Below, piece after piece: positions 2,730 through 10,789 of a stretch of 11,320 bases of DNA (position 1 is its first letter; each line of letters opens with the position of its first letter). The stretch comes from a virus: UHGV virus genome UHGV-0170512. The stretch is one strand, 5' to 3'. The translations under genes and the position numbers were made by a program. The notes under the pieces were generated by a model. That model worked only from the letters and a program-made list of their open reading frames with translations, made no database searches and had not been told where the DNA came from.

Positions 2730-3212
2730 TCATCGAAGGCATTGCGTCCTGATATATTCCTGAAGCGTTCTCAGTGCTGTCTGGTCTCTGATGATTCCGT
2801 CCCGGATACCGAGAACGTTTCGTCCAGCAACTGGAGAGAGTTCGACGGTGGCATCATTGCCCATGCCGGAGGCGCTGGAGGTTTCGGCTGAGGATGGCAC
2901 AGGGCATTTTCCTTTGACGAGCACCCGACCACCATTATCAAGCTTGCGCCGAAGAGCATCATTTTCAGCTTTCGCATCAGCCAACTCCTTCGTGTATTTA
3001 GCATCGAGTACATCAGCAGCACGCTGGCGTTGCTGCATGTCAGTAATGGTGGCGGTCGCCTGCTTCAGCTCACTGACTTTTTTATCACGCTGTTCTTTGT
3101 AGGCGATGGCGTTATCACGGTAATGATTGACCGCCCACGACAGGCAGACGATGATGCAAATAACCAGAGCATAAATAATCGCGGCGACTCTGCTCACTGA
3201 TCTATCCCCCAA
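2730..3212 (-). CDS. Rz: Rz i-spanin (inner-membrane spanin subunit)
   Basis: 160-aa ORF; N-terminal segment [38 protein letters not shown] closely parallels lambda Rz ([39 protein letters not shown]), with coiled-coil periplasmic domain and C-terminal Cys. The true start may be a few codons inside the track ORF; it overlaps the endolysin 3' end. Confidence 0.85.
2771..2977 (-). CDS. Rz1: Rz1 o-spanin lipoprotein, embedded in the +1 frame of Rz
   Basis: Track ORF 2771..3022 trimmed to the internal start [22 protein letters not shown]; lipobox-like VVGC followed by a proline-rich segment ([11 protein letters not shown]) parallels lambda Rz1 (MLKLKMML...VVVGC...PPPPPAW). Lies entirely inside Rz. 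Confidence 0.75.
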
Positions 3213-3727
3213 CAGGCTAATGCGCTTTCCTGGTCACGACGAATAACCTGTCCATAGCAGTTATTTGAACGTATGCGGCAATCGCGCCCACCATCTTTTA
3301 TCCACCAGCGAATCGCCTCGCATGCACTCTTACGATCACCGGCATTCAGCCGCTTATAAAACGTCGACGGGAAACACTTACCGGGGCCAATGTTATAGGG
3401 ACAAAATGACGCTATACCCGCTTTCTGTGGTTCGGTCAGTGGTACTTTAATATTGCGCTCCACCCATGCCAGCGCCTTATCACGTTCAATAGCGTTAACC
3501 TGGTCGCATTTTTCCTTCGACAGCTTCATTCCCGGTATGACGGGCTTACCATCCACCATTGTGGCACCACGACAGATGGTCCATATACCGGAACCATCGC
3601 GGTATGCCGTAGTGTGGTTACCCTCTTTTTCATCCAGAAACTGGTCAAGTATTTGAGGAGCAGACGAGCCTGCAGCAATCAGCGCCAGAACGGCAGCCGA
3701 CAGGCCGTATCTGATTTTTGCGTTCAT
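3194..3727 (-). CDS. SAR endolysin (phage lysozyme, T4/P21 R-type, GH24) with N-terminal signal-anchor-release domain
   Basis: 177 aa. N-terminal hydrophobic, Gly/Ala-rich segment [16 protein letters not shown], then catalytic-triad spacing E-x8-D-x5-T in [16 protein letters not shown], parallel to the P21 R lysozyme. Sits in a lysis cassette next to a pinholin. Confidence 0.85.
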
Positions 3728-3790: not shown

Positions 3791-4141
3791 TTAAGGTTGT
3801 GATTCCGGAGGAGTCTTCAGAGAACCAGTAATTCTTCCTGGTAGCTTTCCTTTGTAGGTTATCCACACATTCTGCGCATCTAAAATTACGGGGCGCTTTT
3901 CCGGCGACTGCTCATCCCCTTCACATAACCCGGCAGCAACATCCAGGAAGACCTGTCTGATGCTCCTTCTGGCTGCTGCCTCATAAAACTCCAGCGCGGC
4001 ACCTTCAACACGGTCCAGCGAGATGTCCAGGTCAAAAATTTCACCGTCAAAGCGTTTTTTGTCCCGTAACGCTACAGTTACCGTAACTTTATTCTCAAAA
4101 TTGCGGATCCCTTTCACAATCAGTTCATAGTTTTGAGTCAT
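3791..4141 (-). CDS. Hypothetical protein between holin and endolysin (YdfR/DUF1327-like by position)
   Basis: 116-aa ORF with good SD (GGAGAG, 8 nt before the ATG at 4141-4139) lying inside the 3' end of the holin gene; 4-nt gap after the holin stop. A small gene (ydfR) occupies the same holin-endolysin slot in the K-12 Qin prophage as I recall; sequence-level family membership is not verified. Confidence 0.55.
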   Translation of the reverse strand: MTQNYELIVKGIRNFENKVTVTVALRDKKRFDGEIFDLDISLDRVEGAALEFYEAAARRSIRQVFLDVAAGLCEGDEQSPEKRPVILDAQNVWITYKGKLPGRITGSLKTPPESQP

Positions 4142-4145
4142 TGAA

Positions 4146-4361
4146 TTACTCTCCCCGTGCCGCCTTACGACGGTCCTCTCTGATTTTGAAATACAGGTTA
4201 GTCAGATATGTCAGCAGCCCAAACAGCAGACTTCCCAGCACGCCTATTGCCGCCCACTGAGACGGGGAAACCCTGTCCAGCAACTGCAGGAACCAGTAGC
4301 CCGTTCCCACCGCTGACGTGGTGTATGACACACCTGTTGTGATTTTTTCCATCTGGTCCAT
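4146..4361 (-). CDS. Pinholin, phage 21 S21-like (class II holin) with dual-start motif
   Basis: Track ORF 4146..4466 trimmed to the internal start [10 protein letters not shown]. The C-terminal two thirds, [51 protein letters not shown], are near-identical to P21 S21 as I recall it; 71 aa. Met1 and Met4 (MDQM) resemble the S21 antiholin/holin dual start. Confidence 0.85.
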
Positions 4362-4510
4362 ACCCCGTCTCCCGTTATCCGGAAGCTGACAACAATAAAA
4401 AAGCCACCAGTTAACTACTGATGGCTCTGATAACTCATGCAAGCGTCTCAGACGACCCACTGACACTACCGGTGAGTTTAACGATACCTTCCATTTGACT
4501 GGCTCACTTT

Positions 4511-4869
4511 TTATGATGATGCCGGTGCATTTATCTCCAGCGCCAGACTTTCTATCTCAACGCCATACGTTGCATTTTTGGTAATATCCGTCAGCGTCAG
4601 TGCATTTAGTCCCACTGCCAGACTGTCTTTTATGGCCTGGAATGCCGGGCCAGTACGATGACGTAGTATCACTCCGGCTCAGTTGCACCACTGACCACCA
4701 CATCACCTTCTGCTGCAATCGCCTGCATCAGGGTATAAGGGGTTATGGCCACCGGACTACCAAACGGCTGCCAGCCCTCTTTCAGTTTATGTGTCAGCTT
4801 TTCCGCAAGATCTGACGGCGGCGCCGCCCTGACAACATCATAGTGTTTAAATGCCATGGTTCTTTCCAC
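4511..4869 (-). pseudogene. DUF1737-like gene (NanS-p N-terminal-domain-like), apparently frameshifted/truncated
   Basis: Track ORF 4669..4869 (66 aa, MERTMAFKHYDVVRAAPPSDLAEKL...) stops at 4669-4671; a second stop-free frame of 55 codons ([55 protein letters not shown]) opens just after a stop at 4679-4681 and runs to 4511, overlapping the first frame in 4669-4678. Consistent with a single indel. The first Met may be the third residue (MAFKHYDVV). Confidence 0.35.
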
Positions 4870-5117
4870 TATCTGAAAAATAATTCTTTAAAATACCTGA
4901 CATGTAATACAGAAAAAACACAAAACTATACCTTAAATAAAAACCTGATTATCAAGCAGATATGCATGGATAAACTACAAGACGAGATATAAACCACCCT
5001 GCATTTAAATAAACAATAAACAACATCAGAAAAATAATTCTGCTCTATGGTTTACATTCAAAAATATCATTTATACTTTTCAGGACATCACCAGCAAGGC
5101 ATAAACAAGGAAACCAA

Positions 5118-5453
5118 ATGAAGTGGATTGTGATTGATACAGTTATCCAGCCATCATGCGGAATATCTTTTTCAGTCATATGGAGTAAAATAAAATTAAT
5201 AATCTGGTATCAATCGGATGCTTTCTTACCTCCTGAAAGTATATTTACACTGACTCACACAGGCATCATGCTCAATAACAAAGTGCTACCTGTAACCATT
5301 TACAACGTAGTACCATTCAATAAAACATTCTGGAATTTAATCAAAAACAGCCAGGAATGCCCTACAAATACAGATAACGTATTGAATGAATGCTTTAATA
5401 ACCGTTGCACTCTGCAAATATGTCCTTATGGACTAAAACAACAAAGTCCATAA
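5118..5453 (+). CDS. Hypothetical 111-aa protein, AT-rich convergent moron ORF
   Basis: Only credible plus-strand ORF in the window. Strong SD AAGGAA 7 nt upstream of the ATG at 5118, preceded by a ~250 bp very AT-rich stretch (4870-5117). Visibly lower GC than the phage backbone; 5 Cys; no recognisable family. Confidence 0.45.
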
Positions 5454-5487
5454 GGAGTTTACTCACATCTGACAAAATCAATATAAA

Positions 5488-5509
5488 CAGCCCCTCCGGA
5501 GAGGGGCTG
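5488..5509 (-). terminator. GC hairpin, likely Rho-independent terminator for minus-strand transcription (possibly also stops the convergent plus-strand ORF)
   Basis: CAGCCCCTC-CGGA-GAGGGGCTG, 9-bp perfect stem; on the minus strand it is followed by TTTATATTGATTTTG. On the plus strand it sits 35 nt after the 5118..5453 stop but has no U-tract. Confidence 0.4.
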
Positions 5510-5900
5510 GAGAGTGGCGCTATGTGCCATTGCATGGTGCCGGGTGCCTCCCGGTGAATTCAGTACCAGCACCTGAATCCGCGATTATCCCATATACCTA
5601 CTCGCTGATTGCCCCTCCGCACAGGGGGATTCACCATGCCAGTTTCTTTTAACAAACTCCCCGCAAACCAGACAACAGTCAACCGCCTGAATTGTGAAGT
5701 ATTTAAAAATTTCTCCCGCTAACTGATACCCGGCTAACAGTCTGGCGTTTTCTTTTTCAGCAACGGAAAAGCAACAACCACCACACCTGCCACCAGCACA
5801 CCGTCAGCCAGCACTGACATTATCCGGCTGCTGCAATGCCATTCACAAAAACAGTAAGCAATCACTTTTTACCGTAACAGGTGATAATCCAGATATGTAT

Positions 5901-6227
5901 CTACCCCAGATGAGTAATCCGAAGTTCATCCATACCACAGGTCCTGGCTATTCTGTTGTACTCCTGAACAAGAGCAAATAATTCTGAATTAGCAACCATG
6001 AACTCATCGCTAACCCTCTGTATAGCATCACTATTCAGAATAATAACGTCTCTTCCCGAAAGACGATCAGGAGTACAAAACAAAACTGTCAAACGGCTGA
6101 AGGCCTTTGCTCGTGCTGCATTGACTATATCAATACGCTGCCTAAGGATGAAACACCCCGACGCCTCATCAATATTCACTCTACCCACACCATATGAATG
6201 ATAAATATTTAATGCTGAAAAAACCAT
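5901..6227 (-). CDS. Hypothetical protein (108 aa from the internal ATG); doubtful
   Basis: Track ORF 5901..6254 starts at TTG; the first ATG is at 6227-6225 (MVFSALNIYH...) with a weak SD. No recognisable motifs; immediately downstream of the tRNA cluster. Confidence 0.25.
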   Translation of the reverse strand: MVFSALNIYHSYGVGRVNIDEASGCFILRQRIDIVNAARAKAFSRLTVLFCTPDRLSGRDVIILNSDAIQRVSDEFMVANSELFALVQEYNRIARTCGMDELRITHLG

Positions 6228-6364
6228 TAGACCGTATAACAAACACTCAATCAATACTTAACAGAACTTTTATTTTTGACAAACATATAATATTTTCAAC
6301 AATATCCTGAGCCAGGTATATTCCAGTATAAGGCTCTGCCGGAAGGAATCTGGAAGAATGAATA

Positions 6365-6441
6365 TGGCGCGTTGTACTGGATTCGAACCACTGACCGATT
6401 GCTTAGAAGGCAATTGCTCTGTCCTGCTGAGCTAACAACGC
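6365..6441 (-). tRNA. tRNA-Arg (anticodon UCU)
   Basis: Minus strand GCGTTGTTAGCTCAGCAGGACAGAGCAATTGCCTTCTAAGCAATCGGTCAGTGGTTCGAATCCAGTACAACGCGCCA: 7-bp acceptor stem, D arm GCTC/GAGC, anticodon loop CTTCTAA, T loop TTCGAAT, encoded CCA. One G:G mismatch in the T stem. Confidence 0.8.
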
Positions 6442-6454
6442 AGAATACCGATAA

Positions 6455-6531
6455 TGGACCACCATCGGGGACCCGAACTCCGCGCAACCAGCTTCGAAAG
6501 CTGGCGCTCTTTCCTGATGAGCTAATGGCGG
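6455..6531 (-). tRNA. tRNA-Arg (anticodon UCG)
   Basis: Minus strand CCGCCATTAGCTCATCAGGAAAGAGCGCCAGCTTTCGAAGCTGGTTGCGCGGAGTTCGGGTCCCCGATGGTGGTCCA: acceptor stem with one G:U pair, perfect anticodon stem CCAGC/GCTGG, loop TTTCGAA, encoded CCA. Non-canonical T loop TTCGGGT (G at position 58) and one A:C mismatch in the T stem. Confidence 0.7.
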
Positions 6532-6538
6532 TATGTGA

Positions 6539-6614
6539 TGGTGGCCCTTGCTGGATTTGAACCAGCGACCTGGCGATTATGAGTCGCTCGCTCTCACCAC
6601 TGAGCTAAAGGGCC
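6539..6614 (-). tRNA. tRNA with CAU anticodon (Ile2-type, ileX-like, or Met)
   Basis: Minus strand GGCCCTTTAGCTCAGTGGTGAGAGCGAGCGACTCATAATCGCCAGGTCGCTGGTTCAAATCCAGCAAGGGCCACCA: perfect acceptor and T stems, anticodon loop CTCATAA; closely resembles the E. coli ileX tRNA as I recall it. Confidence 0.85.
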
Positions 6615-6736
6615 ATATGCGGAATAATACTTATGCCAGTTTAGCTCTGCAATACCCTACCCTGATTAAATCCTGCATATTGGCCTACACATGATAAAAG
6701 AATCTGAGCGGTCAACAGAAAGTTACTCAGGCAATA

Positions 6737-7456
6737 TTAACGAACTCTGACTACATTAATTTCAAAGTCATCAATCTGCCCGCTATTAAGTATAACGAAT
6801 GCAGAACTCCCATTACTGTACGATTTCGATAAAACCAGACGATCATCATAGCGTGCAAGAACGTAATACCAAGTATTCTCATAGTGGATCGTCTGATATT
6901 CCCTCTTAAACTGGGGTTTATACCAACCGGCAATAAGAGAGAATGTCCAGAAATAAATCATGAATCCAGCCATAATAAACTCAATTCGGTGATGGCGAAT
7001 AAAAGACACTTCCGAAAAACATTTGACTGAAATAAGTCTTCTTCCTGACCTGACAAAAAGCGTAATTGTAAAGGCAGCAATAACACAAAAAAACAGCACA
7101 TCTGGCTCAACGTGCTGATGAATTACCGAAAACTCCAGAACAGGCGGAATAAAAAGCAGCAATATTGCCAGAAAAAGTCTGATAAAACTCAAATTCTGTA
7201 TATTGTTTTTTTGTTTTATGCCTAAAAAGAAAACAATACCTACTCCCCATCCAGTAAGGAATATAACGATAACGCTCACAGCATAAAACAAACTTCGGGC
7301 CACATCATCAACGCCAACCCCGACGATCCACCATGGAAAGCCATAGTAAAAGGAAGTCCCCCATCCATAGAAATAAGCGCTTCCCCATCCAAGACAGCCC
7401 ATATAAGCAATAAAAAGTGAAGAGTTCCTCAGCAGAGTGCTGTCATCCATACCCAT
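6737..7456 (-). CDS. Uncharacterised polytopic membrane protein (about 5 predicted TM helices plus ~60-aa C-terminal soluble tail)
   Basis: 239-aa ORF, first gene after the tR'-like terminator. Successive hydrophobic, aromatic-rich segments (FIAYMGCLGWGSAYFYGWG..., LFYAVSVIVIFLTGWGVGIVFFLGI, FIRLFLAILLLFIPPVLEF, VLFFCVIAAFTITLFV, IMAGFMIYFWTFSLIAGWY). Visibly AT-rich. Likely start is the second ATG (7450), with GAGAG 6 nt upstream. Confidence 0.6.
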   Translation of the reverse strand: MGMDDSTLLRNSSLFIAYMGCLGWGSAYFYGWGTSFYYGFPWWIVGVGVDDVARSLFYAVSVIVIFLTGWGVGIVFFLGIKQKNNIQNLSFIRLFLAILLLFIPPVLEFSVIHQHVEPDVLFFCVIAAFTITLFVRSGRRLISVKCFSEVSFIRHHRIEFIMAGFMIYFWTFSLIAGWYKPQFKREYQTIHYENTWYYVLARYDDRLVLSKSYSNGSSAFVILNSGQIDDFEINVVRVR

Positions 7457-7591
7457 CTCTCTAACAATTTTAAAACATCAACTCATCTTACATAACAAAG
7501 GAGATTCCATGCAGTCAAGAGACTTCAGAGCAGGAGAAACTCATTGCGCAATCGCCATCACGTTTAACGTTATGCACCGCTTTCCAGATAT

Positions 7592-7616
7592 AAAAAACCC
7601 GCTCGATGGCGGGCTG
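7592..7616 (-). terminator. tR'-like Rho-independent terminator downstream of Q
   Basis: Minus strand AGCCCGC-CATCGA-GCGGG followed by TTTTTTATATC; about 80-100 nt downstream of the Q stop, as expected for the short pR' transcript of lambdoid phages. Confidence 0.55.
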
Positions 7617-7662
7617 TAAAAATCCTTCTAACGTCAGGCATAAAACGCCCATCGTTAGAGCA

Positions 7663-7690
7663 AATTTACCACAGATTCGGGAAAAATCAA
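7663..7690 (-). promoter_or_regulatory. Candidate late promoter pR' (with presumed qut region)
   Basis: Minus strand TTGATT-16 nt-TAAATT with TGG immediately upstream of the -10 (extended -10-like), directly after the Q stop codon (7696). Confidence 0.35.
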
Positions 7691-7695
7691 CAACA

Positions 7696-8517
7696 CTATC
7701 GCGTTACCCTCTTTAACTGCCGCTCCGCCCATGCCTCTTCAATGTCAAACCGAACCACCAACGTATCGTAAAAGCGTTTCACTGATTTTTTCCACGTATC
7801 AAGCGTGATAGCACTCGTCACTTTGCGTATGGCATTAAATGCCTCCGTTGATGGTAGTCTTTCATAGCCCCGACCGCCACAACGCTGGCAGTTCCTGATT
7901 ACAGGCATACCCCGTTTTTCCGACTCTTCACGATGAATGGCAACACCACGCCCACGGCAGTCTTTACAGGCAGTGGAAATCTCCCCCTTCCCTTTACATT
8001 CAGGACAAGAAACTTTCACCACCTCCCGGATTTTTTTCCATTCTTCCCAGTAAGACGGATACACACCTTTCGTACACTTTGCCCATACCGGCGGCTTACC
8101 ATCCGGATACTGGACCTTGTTTGTAAAAACTACGCTTTCAATAAATTTTTCCCCATAGCAACAAGGGCACTGCTTTTTACTCGCTGCGCTGCGGGCATAA
8201 TCCTCAAAAGCGTACGAAGCCATAATGCGCATCACTACCGGTTTTATTTCTGCCGGAAGTTTTCTTAACGCCGCCACGCGATCGCACTGACTTAATGCAT
8301 AATCTGCCAGTAATTCTGTTGCCCGCGCCCTGTCATTCATACTAATACCCATTTTCCCCAGGAACGCAGAAAATCCCATCTCAGCCCGGTTTTGTGTCAT
8401 ACCCTGCGCAGCCATCACATCAGTGATGCTCAGCGCATCTTTTGACGTCGAGACGGATGCATCAGTCAGGCCTGGCGATTTTGGGGAATAGTATTTCGGT
8501 AAATCTTCCAGTCTCAT
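7696..8517 (-). CDS. Q-like late antiterminator (QuuQ-type, zinc-finger Cys pairs)
   Basis: 273-aa ORF with several CxxC pairs (CPCC, CPEC, CKDC, CQRC); positioned after rusA and before a promoter-terminator pair and the lysis genes, the canonical Q position. ATG overlaps the rusA stop (ATGA). Confidence 0.6.
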   Translation of the reverse strand: MRLEDLPKYYSPKSPGLTDASVSTSKDALSITDVMAAQGMTQNRAEMGFSAFLGKMGISMNDRARATELLADYALSQCDRVAALRKLPAEIKPVVMRIMASYAFEDYARSAASKKQCPCCYGEKFIESVVFTNKVQYPDGKPPVWAKCTKGVYPSYWEEWKKIREVVKVSCPECKGKGEISTACKDCRGRGVAIHREESEKRGMPVIRNCQRCGGRGYERLPSTEAFNAIRKVTSAITLDTWKKSVKRFYDTLVVRFDIEEAWAERQLKRVTR

Positions 8518-8888
8518 TTTTGGACCTGCCCGTCATGCATTATTTCGTAAATCTTCACGCCCAACCGACCACCAGGAACGAGCTGACCGCGCACAATATT
8601 GATTTCATCAAACTGCTCGTCGTCTATAAGTAGTCCGGCATGCGTCAGCGCATCCAGTGGTGCTTTCAGGATATTGTCCAGGTCACGACGGCGCTTATCC
8701 GGTGGCTCTGCAATCACCTTTATCGCCAGCCTTCCGGACAGGCTTAATTTCAGCTGCTGCTGGCGAACAATAAGCGCCACAGCCCGGCGATAACGCTTTC
8801 CCTCCTCCGAGATAAAATATGTGCTGCCACGGCGTCGCCAGTAAGTGTTCACCGTCGGCGGGTAAGGTAAAACCAAATCTATGAGCAT
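8514..8888 (-). CDS. rusA: RusA Holliday-junction resolvase
   Basis: 124 aa; PPTVNTYWRR... and DKRRRDLDNILKAPLDALTHAGLLIDDEQ parallel E. coli RusA (PPSNNRYYRH..., [30 protein letters not shown]). Strong SD (AGAGGTGA) upstream. Confidence 0.85.
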   Translation of the reverse strand: MLIDLVLPYPPTVNTYWRRRGSTYFISEEGKRYRRAVALIVRQQQLKLSLSGRLAIKVIAEPPDKRRRDLDNILKAPLDALTHAGLLIDDEQFDEINIVRGQLVPGGRLGVKIYEIMHDGQVQK

Positions 8889-8900
8889 CAGTCACCTCTT

Positions 8901-9950
8901 TTACCCAAGCACGCCGGTTGCAAAGGCGTGATCAAGAAAACGAAAAATTAAATCAACCTGAGAACCATGCTTTTCTTCGAACGCCAGCGGATCCGCATGA
9001 AGCTCGTTGTGATGCTCCCGACACAGCGGTAGCGTGAAAATATCGTGGGCCTTTGTTCCCATCCCTCCCTGACCGTGACCAATCAGGTGATGGGGATCGT
9101 CGGCTGGCTGACCACAACACGCACACGGCTGTGTCTTCACCCAGCGCGTATATTTCTCATTTACCCAACGGCGACGTTTAGGTCGCCTCATGAAAGATTC
9201 CGGAGAGTCCGGATCAACGGCAATGCTGACCACCGCCTTTTCCAGTGGTGGGTTCTGTTGCTGGTGGGCGTGAAGCAGCGGCGTAAGATTTTTTGTGCGC
9301 TGTTTCAGTATGCTGGTGGCGGTCTGCTCTCCCGGTACGATGTCGCTTTCGCGGTACACCGCGCGGATTTTTTCCGCACGTAACCCCAGAGAACGACGTA
9401 ATACTGCCTCCGGAAGCGCGTCCGCCACTTGATTGCAGACCGCCCACCAGGATAATTCAGCCAGCGATAACTCCCGCTCCTGCGTGCCATTCATTGCATG
9501 GCGTATGACGTCAATCATCCATGCTGCCAGGTTTTGTTGAGCAAGTTGCTCAAGTGATTCGGATGTCTGGTCACGCAGCTGGTTATCGCAGTGCCAGCAC
9601 AACACCATCGCGCCGGTGCCGTAACGATGTATGACGGTTTCACTGTGATGATAGTCACCATGAGGCCACTGGCAGGATTTGACATGACGCAACAGCCAGT
9701 CAGACAGTGCACCAGCGCCGCCAGCAGCACGAATCACACGCTCATTGCTGAAAAACCGCAGTAATGATTTATCCTCCGCCAGCGGCTGGCGAACGGCAGG
9801 GACGATGCCGGACGGCAGACCACGCATGCTTTTCGGTTCCGGCTCCACCAGCACTCGAGGGTTATGGAATACCTGCATGGATTCACGGCCTGGTTTAAGG
9901 ACCACCAGCCCAAGTTCCGGTACCGGAACAGGTCGAAGTAATACCCGCAC
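8901..9950 (-). CDS. DUF968 family protein (YdfU-like) with C-terminal Cys/His (HNH-like) motif
   Basis: 349-aa ORF, GTG start with strong SD GGAGGT 5 nt upstream. C-terminal CACCGQPADDPHHLIGHG...HDIFTLPLCREHHNELH. Same length and genomic context as YdfU of the K-12 Qin prophage as I recall. Confidence 0.65.
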   Translation of the reverse strand: MRVLLRPVPVPELGLVVLKPGRESMQVFHNPRVLVEPEPKSMRGLPSGIVPAVRQPLAEDKSLLRFFSNERVIRAAGGAGALSDWLLRHVKSCQWPHGDYHHSETVIHRYGTGAMVLCWHCDNQLRDQTSESLEQLAQQNLAAWMIDVIRHAMNGTQERELSLAELSWWAVCNQVADALPEAVLRRSLGLRAEKIRAVYRESDIVPGEQTATSILKQRTKNLTPLLHAHQQQNPPLEKAVVSIAVDPDSPESFMRRPKRRRWVNEKYTRWVKTQPCACCGQPADDPHHLIGHGQGGMGTKAHDIFTLPLCREHHNELHADPLAFEEKHGSQVDLIFRFLDHAFATGVLG

Positions 9951-9951
9951 G

Positions 9952-10230
9952 TTACCTCCAGATGCGTTGCTGGAATGTGCGGGACGGACGCGGTGGGCGT
10001 TCGGAGTAAGGCAATCTGACTGAGATTATCCAGTGACGGTAGTCGAGGCTAAGGGCTTTTTTAACCTCGTATCCGCGCCTGCGGTAACACTGAATTATCC
10101 ATTCAGCCTGCTCTTCAGTGCATGGAGGATGCTGGAACCAGTCTGATTTGAATGCGTGAAAACGCCGTCCGCACCTGCTGGCAAAGACGGCAGAATCATT
10201 AGAATTGTGTAATTTGGTATCGTGCGCCAT
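9952..10230 (-). CDS. Hypothetical protein, rem-like by position (between hok and the DUF968 gene)
   Basis: Track ORF 9952..10359 trimmed to the internal ATG at 10230 because a terminator hairpin (10301-10329) lies inside the longer ORF; 92 aa. Start and identity uncertain. Confidence 0.4.
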   Translation of the reverse strand: MAHDTKLHNSNDSAVFASRCGRRFHAFKSDWFQHPPCTEEQAEWIIQCYRRRGYEVKKALSLDYRHWIISVRLPYSERPPRPSRTFQQRIWR

Positions 10231-10397: not shown

Positions 10398-10553
10398 TTA
10401 CTCCTCAGGTTCGTAAGCTGTGAAGACAGCGACCTCCGTCTGGCCGGTTCGGATTCGTACCTCGCAGAGGTCTTTCCTCGTTACCAGTGCCGTCACTATG
10501 ACGGTTAAACAGATGACGATCAGGGCGATTAACATCGCCTTTTGCTGCTTCAT
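10398..10553 (-). CDS. hok: Hok-family type I toxin (HokD/RelF-like), 51 aa
   Basis: Hand-translated, below the ORF-track size cutoff: MKQQKAMLIALIVICLTVIVTALVTRKDLCEVRIRTGQTEVAVFTAYEPEE. Single TM segment and Hok/Gef signature; SD AGGAGAAG 6 nt upstream of the ATG. Confidence 0.85.
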   Translation of the reverse strand: MKQQKAMLIALIVICLTVIVTALVTRKDLCEVRIRTGQTEVAVFTAYEPEE

Positions 10554-10789
10554 AGCCTGCTTCTCCTTGACCTTTCGGTCCGTAAGAGGCTAATCTCTAT
10601 GTGTCGCATAGATATGGCCTCAGATTAATGTTAAGCGTCTTGCAGGACGCGTAATGTTAACTGGGGCTTTTCTCTATCTGCCTTTTGGTGTTCATGCCTG
10701 AGGCAGATAGCCTCAAGCACCCGCAGCAATTCTACTTAACTCACGTCACCTCGCCAATATGAAATCAATCAGAAAGGTGATCCATAAAA

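Follow-up and report, generated by a model that had tools for sequence, protein, structure and literature searches.

The tRNA cluster in the 11,320-nucleotide stretch of virus genome UHGV-0170512 that we analyzed (hereafter the window) is, with a probability that we put at about 0.7, the ileZ-argN-argO cassette of Escherichia and Shigella lambdoid prophages, a small tRNA operon of the late region found here without stx, of which ileZ would be intact, argO probably weakened and argN probably impaired. The minus strand carries three tRNA genes with CAU, UCG and UCU anticodons, which ARAGORN placed exactly where the initial annotation had put them, with the same 7-nt and 13-nt spacers (Table 1). 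In Rfam cmscan searches the three genes scored 72.5 bits (E=1e-14), 45.5 bits (E=3e-7) and 62.3 bits (E=7e-12), respectively, against RF00005, the gathering score of which is 29, and all three scores are far beyond chance. CCA is encoded in all three genes, and their order, common strand and short spacers are those of the ileZ-argN-argO cassette. A search with the 400 bases around the cluster gave matches at 93-95% identity in 289 phage records, most of them of Stx2-converting phages, and in AP012539.1 (Stx2a_WGPS6; 95.1% identity) the genes are annotated as ileZ, argN and argO. Hence, the order had been correctly recognized as that of the Stx phages. The cassette is already known and routinely annotated, and identical argN and argO alleles are already in RefSeq; it was reportedly described in the 933W genome by Plunkett and colleagues in 1999. 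Our literature searches on ileZ/argN/argO, on 933W tRNA genes and on phage tRNAs with Stx found nothing specific in the papers available, and a paper on pR' (PMC6266700) does not mention the tRNAs.

The CAU gene had been labeled Ile/Met. By comparison with the host genes the Ile half of that label stands and the Met half falls: the tRNA is of the Ile2 type, because its body is ileX-like, its acceptor and anticodon stems are unlike those of metT, and PGAP labels identical copies tRNA-Ile. The gene is identical to K-12 ileX at 68 of 76 positions. Its acceptor stem (GGCCCUU/AAGGGCC) retains both C4:G69 and C5:G68, which are reportedly the TilS determinants (Ikeuchi et al. 2005), and ileX C6:G67 has become U6:A67, a compensatory change. 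The cmscan alignment also flagged a feature absent from the initial annotation, A27:C43 in place of ileX G27.U43; it is present in all ileZ copies surveyed and is therefore a tolerated feature of the family. For this survey about 120 prophage loci were gathered by an exact ileZ 25-mer (the first 120 IMG/VR hits plus fetched records) and analyzed by script. The window ileZ allele is that of 84 of the 96 prophage copies surveyed, and ileZ is nearly invariant, in a sample that favors intact ileZ and argO, since every locus was picked by the exact 25-mer of ileZ and by an approximate match to argO; the loci are not independent, many of them belonging to related E. coli prophages, so that this and the other survey counts are to be read qualitatively. 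By allele comparison the window ileZ is the intact consensus allele. The exact 3' 25-mer of ileZ occurs in the genomes that represent the species E. coli, E. albertii, Shigella flexneri and a further Escherichia species; three more records have it as well, two of them MAGs and the third an uncultured Collinsella assembly.

The minus-strand order of the window is hok/sok, a DUF968 gene, rusA, Q, the 239-aa ORF, the three tRNA genes, the 117-aa ORF, an STnc100-like RNA, an IraM-like gene (on the opposite strand), holin, a DUF1327 gene, lysozyme and an Rz-like gene. The cassette is thereby in the late region, after Q and a putative PR'/tR' (7690-7590) and before the holin (4146-4466) and lysozyme (3194-3727) genes. 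The earlier placement of the cassette downstream of Q is thus correct, with the addition that the two do not abut, since PR'-tR' and the 239-aa ORF lie in between. Directly 3' of the Q stop codon is the string TTGATT-16-TAAATT-TGCTCT-AACGATGGG (7690-7648), the TAAATT-N6-AACGATGGG part of which recurs unchanged in lambda where PR' is known to lie (locus L129, 776-796) and was found in 24 related loci. As MAFFT misaligned the promoter when the Q-ileZ interval was aligned with lambda, an exact motif search was used. Given the PR' motif and the terminator after Q, a PR'-tR' unit precedes the tRNA genes, as it does in Stx phages. Without Q this unit would be expected to yield a short transcript, about 65 nt long.

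Table 1. Features of the ileZ-argN-argO locus and its upstream region in the window
Feature	Positions	Strand	Basis
Q antiterminator gene, 273 aa	7696-8517	minus	Pfam PF03589, E=4.9e-52
PR'-like late promoter: -35 TTGATT (7690-7685), -10 TAAATT (7668-7663)	7663-7690	minus	Exact motif match
AACGATGGG: lambda-type initial transcribed/pause-inducing element, putative +1 near 7656	7648-7656	minus	Function predicted from lambda PR'
tR'-like intrinsic terminator, AGCCCGCCATCGAGCGGGTT plus T run	7590-7615	minus	Terminator scan; common to ZH063
Multi-pass membrane ORF, 239 aa, between tR' and the cassette; context, not part of the cassette	6737-7456	minus	phrog_1521, E=6.5e-86, function unknown
Cassette promoter-like element: TTGCAG (6652-6647), 17 nt, TATTAT (6629-6624), 9 nt to ileZ +1	6624-6652	minus	Layout conservation
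ileZ: tRNA-Ile2-type, CAU, 76 nt, CCA encoded	6539-6614	minus	ARAGORN, Rfam 72.5 bits, ileX comparison
ileZ/argN spacer, 7 nt	6532-6538	minus	ARAGORN, direct reading, alignment
argN: tRNA-Arg(UCG), 77 nt, derived G52>A and A58>G; also U32, U70, C1:G72, U73	6455-6531	minus	ARAGORN, Rfam, allele survey
argN/argO spacer, 13 nt	6442-6454	minus	ARAGORN, direct reading, alignment; pi 0.20
argO: tRNA-Arg(UCU), 77 nt, derived C50>G giving G50:G64	6365-6441	minus	ARAGORN, Rfam, allele survey

We considered the STnc100 match (5479-5668) as the short RNA of the PR'-tR' unit, which would put the tRNA genes upstream of PR', and rejected it: the PR' motif and terminator are found directly after Q, and the STnc100 homologue of the Stx2a phage lies downstream of stx2B. 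The match itself (RF02076; 132 bits, minus strand) ends in a terminator hairpin. STnc100 matches were present in 11 of the 15 loci scanned, with two copies in two of them, were downstream of the cassette where checked and adjoined AgvB in some loci. The 239-aa ORF is carried by a 960-bp module (6630-7589) that is absent from ZH063, and occurs with both the Ile-Arg-Arg cassette and an Ile-Lys-Thr-Gly cassette. It was also considered as a defense or tRNA-related gene and set aside, as the searches gave one weak AbiC match (E=0.0037) and no Pfam or NCBIfam match.

The tRNA genes are preceded by a promoter-like element of their own. The layout TTGxxx-17-TATTAT-9-ileZ was found in 123 of 125 ileZ copies, including those with non-homologous upstream contexts, and conservation upstream of ileZ peaks in the -10 hexamer (1.68 bits/position versus 0.44 further upstream); common descent of the bases near the tRNA may account for part of the conservation of the hexamers. 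A consensus promoter scan reported this site in the Stx2a phage locus; a scan of the window did not report it there, where the hexamers are weak by consensus (8/12). The conserved layout suggests that the cassette has its own, predicted promoter. At the other end, 75 of 104 loci have a strong intrinsic terminator after argO (for example, locus L002, 2481-2498). The terminator scan found none there in the window (6300-6364) or in the ZH063/CFT073 type, and therefore cassette transcripts would run into the 117-aa ORF. That ORF (5901-6254, minus strand) matches phrog_2873 (E=4e-69), contains a weak terminator-like hairpin (6065-6047) and has no annotation in the homologous ZH063 stretch.

The initial annotation had noted a G:G mismatch in the T stem of the UCU tRNA, together with G58 and an A:C pair in the T arm of the UCG tRNA, and had called the function of both uncertain. 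All these features were seen by cmscan alignment and by direct reading, and the doubt was justified: by comparison with the other alleles the T-arm oddities of argN and argO are derived, lineage-specific lesions rather than features of the family, and lower the score by about 8 bits in argO and by 10-13 bits in argN relative to canonical alleles. In argO the T arm (AGUGG/UUCGAAU/CCAGU) gives G50:G64, the one break from a canonical tRNA core, and all 12 of the 12 core nucleotides checked are kept. The E. coli ArgRS identity set comprises A20, C35, U or G at position 36 and a purine at position 73. argO has A20, C35, U36 and G73, and its anticodon loop is identical to that of K-12 argU. Across argO and host argU, 98.4% of cells are paired, with nine compensated pairs in which both sides changed, and none of 500 shuffles reached 98.4%. 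In the prophage survey argO is canonical in 80 of 96 copies. The 50:64 pair is C:G in most copies, G:C in seven and U:G in one, and no copies other than those of the window and the ZH063/CFT073 type had G:G. The G:C copies are a compensated switch. The window G:G allele is unlikely to be an intermediate of that G50:C64 lineage, as its A17 and A59 match the C:G background and not C17 and C59. The Rfam score of argO is 62.3 bits versus 70.1 bits for the common allele, and G50:G64 costs about 3.6 kcal/mol of computed cloverleaf energy. Because its lone mismatch, rare and derived, hits a T-stem pair that is kept paired elsewhere in the family, argO is probably functional but weakened.

The argN T arm (CGGAG/UUCGGGU/CCCCG) gives A52:C62 and G58, where canonical alleles (CGGGG/UUCGAGU/CCCCG) have G52:C62 and A58, and with these two changes the gene departs from the canonical elongator core, of which G53:C61, U54, U55 and C56 are retained. 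argN also has C1:G72, U73 and U32, which the initial annotation had not listed. Of the ArgRS elements A20, C35 and G36 are present; position 73 is U throughout the family. Among the 96 copies surveyed, 36 are canonical, 10 have one defect, two (the window and ZH063) have two, 18 have at least three and 30 are scrambled or carry indels. The 64 full-length copies include 21 with A58G, 16 with G52A and 14 with T67A, the last of which breaks pair 6:67. As alleles with G58 alone, with G58 and A52, and with G58, A52 and A67 were all found, stepwise decay is indicated. The window argN scores 45.5 Rfam bits, the Stx2a phage copy 43 and canonical alleles 55-58, and several copies do not reach the Rfam threshold and lack a PGAP annotation. 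Its cloverleaf energy is -22.5 kcal/mol versus -29.4 kcal/mol with A52G reverted, so that A52:C62 costs about 7 kcal/mol. The argN alignment gave no covariation beyond that of shuffles, and eight pairs depart only through unpaired cells. Since argN is canonical in only 36 of 96 copies and scrambled or deleted in 30 of 96, the argN slot appears to be under relaxed constraint and is decaying across prophages. The window argN, in which A58>G would have been followed by G52>A, lies at an early point of the stepwise decay path seen in many prophages, and is probably impaired and dispensable.

The opposing reading is that the T-arm irregularities are tolerated and the three tRNAs, all of them fully functional, decode AUA, AGA/AGG and CGA/CGG as in Stx phages. 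We consider this unlikely, although all three score above the Rfam gathering score, identical sequences are annotated tRNA-Arg with no pseudogene flag, the ArgRS elements A20, C35 and G36 or U36 are present, and a bona fide Stx2a phage argN of 43 bits also has an A:C mismatch (A51:C63). Indeed, ARAGORN, Rfam and RefSeq annotation each accept the three as tRNA genes, and one T-stem mismatch or A58G is no proof of lost function. Against full function, the nucleotide displaced by G58 is among the most conserved in tRNAs, the clade with these derived lesions gathers further breaks (A6:A67 and others), the scrambled or deleted argN copies indicate weak selection, and the computed cloverleaf losses fall on both Arg tRNAs.

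The commonest single argN allele is an 80-81-nt scrambled remnant found in loci L016 and L059 and about 20 others, in which the acceptor, D and T stems are kept but the anticodon region is foreign and the T loop measures 6 nt. As an unusual tRNA the 80-nt form was rejected, since ARAGORN did not accept it even with relaxed thresholds and introns allowed. The tRNA-Lys(UUU) of the Ile-Lys-Thr-Gly cassette (L005 2501-2577; also L018 and L033) has acceptor, D and T arms in common with argN and differs in the anticodon arm alone, and one locus has an argN with a UCU anticodon. Common arms joined to UCG, UCU or UUU anticodon arms indicate remodeling of the anticodon arm of one tRNA scaffold. It is conceivable, although improbable, that the middle slot is an evolvable scaffold of this kind, the remnants of which are retained in register between ileZ and argO in about one-third of copies, and that G58 and A52 are an early step toward a tRNA-like element with a non-decoding role, either as punctuation for RNase P/E processing or as a decoy. 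If true, such a role for a retained argN-slot element would be new.

The initial annotation had proposed that the tRNAs supply decoding of rare codons (AGA/AGG, CGA/CGG and AUA) for AT-rich cargo. We ran the codon usage check on 17 window ORFs, with 14 K-12 genes as the host sample. Per 1000 codons, the window and K-12 sample gave, respectively, 11.3 and 0.7 for AGA, 8.9 and 0.4 for AGG, 16.3 and 3.9 for AUA, 7.0 and 3.3 for CGA, and 12.4 and 5.6 for CGG. Hence, AGA, AGG and AUA are enriched 4-20-fold in the window ORFs, and CGA and CGG only about twofold. The proposal is therefore supported for the codons of argO and ileZ and weakly for CGA/CGG; its restriction to AT-rich cargo is not supported, as the enrichment is spread across early, cargo and lysis genes. 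Codon demand is thus high for the argO and ileZ codons and modest for the argN codons, which matches which of the tRNAs are conserved. In the reading that we favor, that of a prophage tRNA operon with an impaired middle gene, the cassette would be transcribed in the lysogen from its own sigma-70 promoter, and Q-antiterminated read-through from PR' would add to this after induction. RNase P and 3' trimming would excise the tRNAs, after which ileZ would be lysidinylated by TilS and decode AUA, AGA/AGG would be decoded by argO, and argN would decode CGA/CGG. Together the three tRNAs would supplement the scarcest host tRNAs for the prophage genes.

An inert cassette, the relic of a defective prophage with no useful tRNA expression and with conservation owing to recent common descent, seems very improbable to us. 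The window haplotype is a rare mosaic, the usual terminator after argO is missing and two of the three genes carry lesions, all of which would fit a relic. However, ileZ is invariant and argO pairing is kept by compensatory change across divergent flanks, whereas the adjoining 13-nt spacer is the most variable segment of the survey (pi 0.20), which argues for purifying selection, and the promoter-like hexamers are conserved in non-homologous contexts. Least probable of all is a counter-defense function in which the tRNAs replace host tRNAs cut by anticodon nucleases (colicin D for tRNA-Arg, PrrC/PARIS for tRNA-Lys): such a role is proposed or shown for other phage tRNAs in PMC10264068, PMC11464382 and PMC11555353, and the alternative cassette at the same site has a tRNA-Lys(UUU), but the 7-nt anticodon loops are as in the host (CUCAUAA in ileZ and ileX, CUUCUAA in argO and argU), so that the loop changes predicted for nuclease-insensitive tRNAs (PMC10264068) are absent, codon demand accounts for which tRNAs are conserved, and no tRNA nuclease was found within the window.

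Among the closest known systems is the ileZ-argN-argO cassette of Stx-converting lambdoid phages (933W type; AP012539.1), which has the same anticodons, order, strand, spacers and place after Q/PR', and an identical ileZ. The two differ in that the window Q is of a different type, a 239-aa ORF precedes ileZ and no terminator follows argO; moreover, the window argO has G50:G64 and the window argN has A52:C62 and G58 where the Stx2a argN has A51:C63. The cargo also differs, the window having the 117-aa ORF, the STnc100-like RNA and the IraM-like gene and no stx: the downstream ORFs are the phrog_2873 member, the IraM-like gene, the holin gene and others, none of them with a toxin match, and stx is left unaligned when the window is compared with the Stx2a locus. 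Relative to K-12, argO has the D arm, anticodon loop and T loop of argU, with stems that differ by compensatory changes. ileX and argU are host genes, whereas the cassette tRNAs are extra copies borne by the prophage, and argN (UCG) has no known host counterpart in the established K-12 tRNA set.

Of 5426 complete E. coli genomes, 2317 had a match to the argN+argO segment, and the exact allele (at least 99%) was found in 32 records. The two genes are 100% identical in CFT073, ZH063, clone D and others, where RefSeq gives two tRNA-Arg genes with no pseudogene flag. The pseudo-tRNA call that the initial annotation had named as a refutation was thus not encountered in these records. That the exact allele is unchanged in at least 32 genomes could reflect clonal descent (CFT073/ST73-like strains) or tolerance of the lesions. 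In the CFT073/ZH063-type prophage cluster the downstream 2.8 kb is also 99.3% identical to the window, and this identity to ZH063 spans window positions 3802-6629. Upstream, the ZH063 type has Q/tR' 22 nt from ileZ, and the window instead has the 960-bp module with the 239-aa ORF and a Q region like that of E500002 and IHE3034, to which window positions 6330-10207 are 93-97% identical. The Ile-Lys-Thr-Gly cassette that occupies the same site (for example in IHE3034) has an identical ileZ and an identical upstream module of 239-aa ORF and Q; its anticodon arm is remodeled from UCG to UUU, and Thr and Gly tRNAs take the place of argO. Both Arg genes belong to the ZH063 type and the bases just upstream of ileZ to the E500002 type, and the crossover therefore maps inside the invariant ileZ/spacer segment (6532-6629). 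By these matches the window joins a left module of the E500002 type to a right module of the CFT073/ZH063 type. Crude typing of the flanks gave 42 upstream/downstream combinations in 100 loci, the window combination being seen once, and among complete E. coli genomes the highest coverage of the window did not exceed 75%. The conserved tRNA genes coincide with a module boundary, and they may serve as homology for exchange.

For annotation, the CAU gene is to be called tRNA-Ile2 and argN, in the lineage of the window, a doubtful or decaying gene, and the element marks a non-Stx lambdoid prophage rather than a toxin phage. A modest general point is that within one three-tRNA operon conservation tracks codon demand: the readers of AUA and AGA/AGG are kept, and the CGA/CGG reader repeatedly decays or is remodeled.

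Two other loci of the window were observed. The IraM-like anti-adaptor gene (5118-5453, plus strand; NF007393, E=5e-48) is in a 33% GC island (AT-rich at 4800-5450), and uses AUA at 54 per 1000 codons with no rare Arg codons. At 10398-10722 on the minus strand is a hok/sok-type toxin-antisense module, in which the sok match (RF01794, 108 bits) adjoins a 51-aa hok-like ORF.
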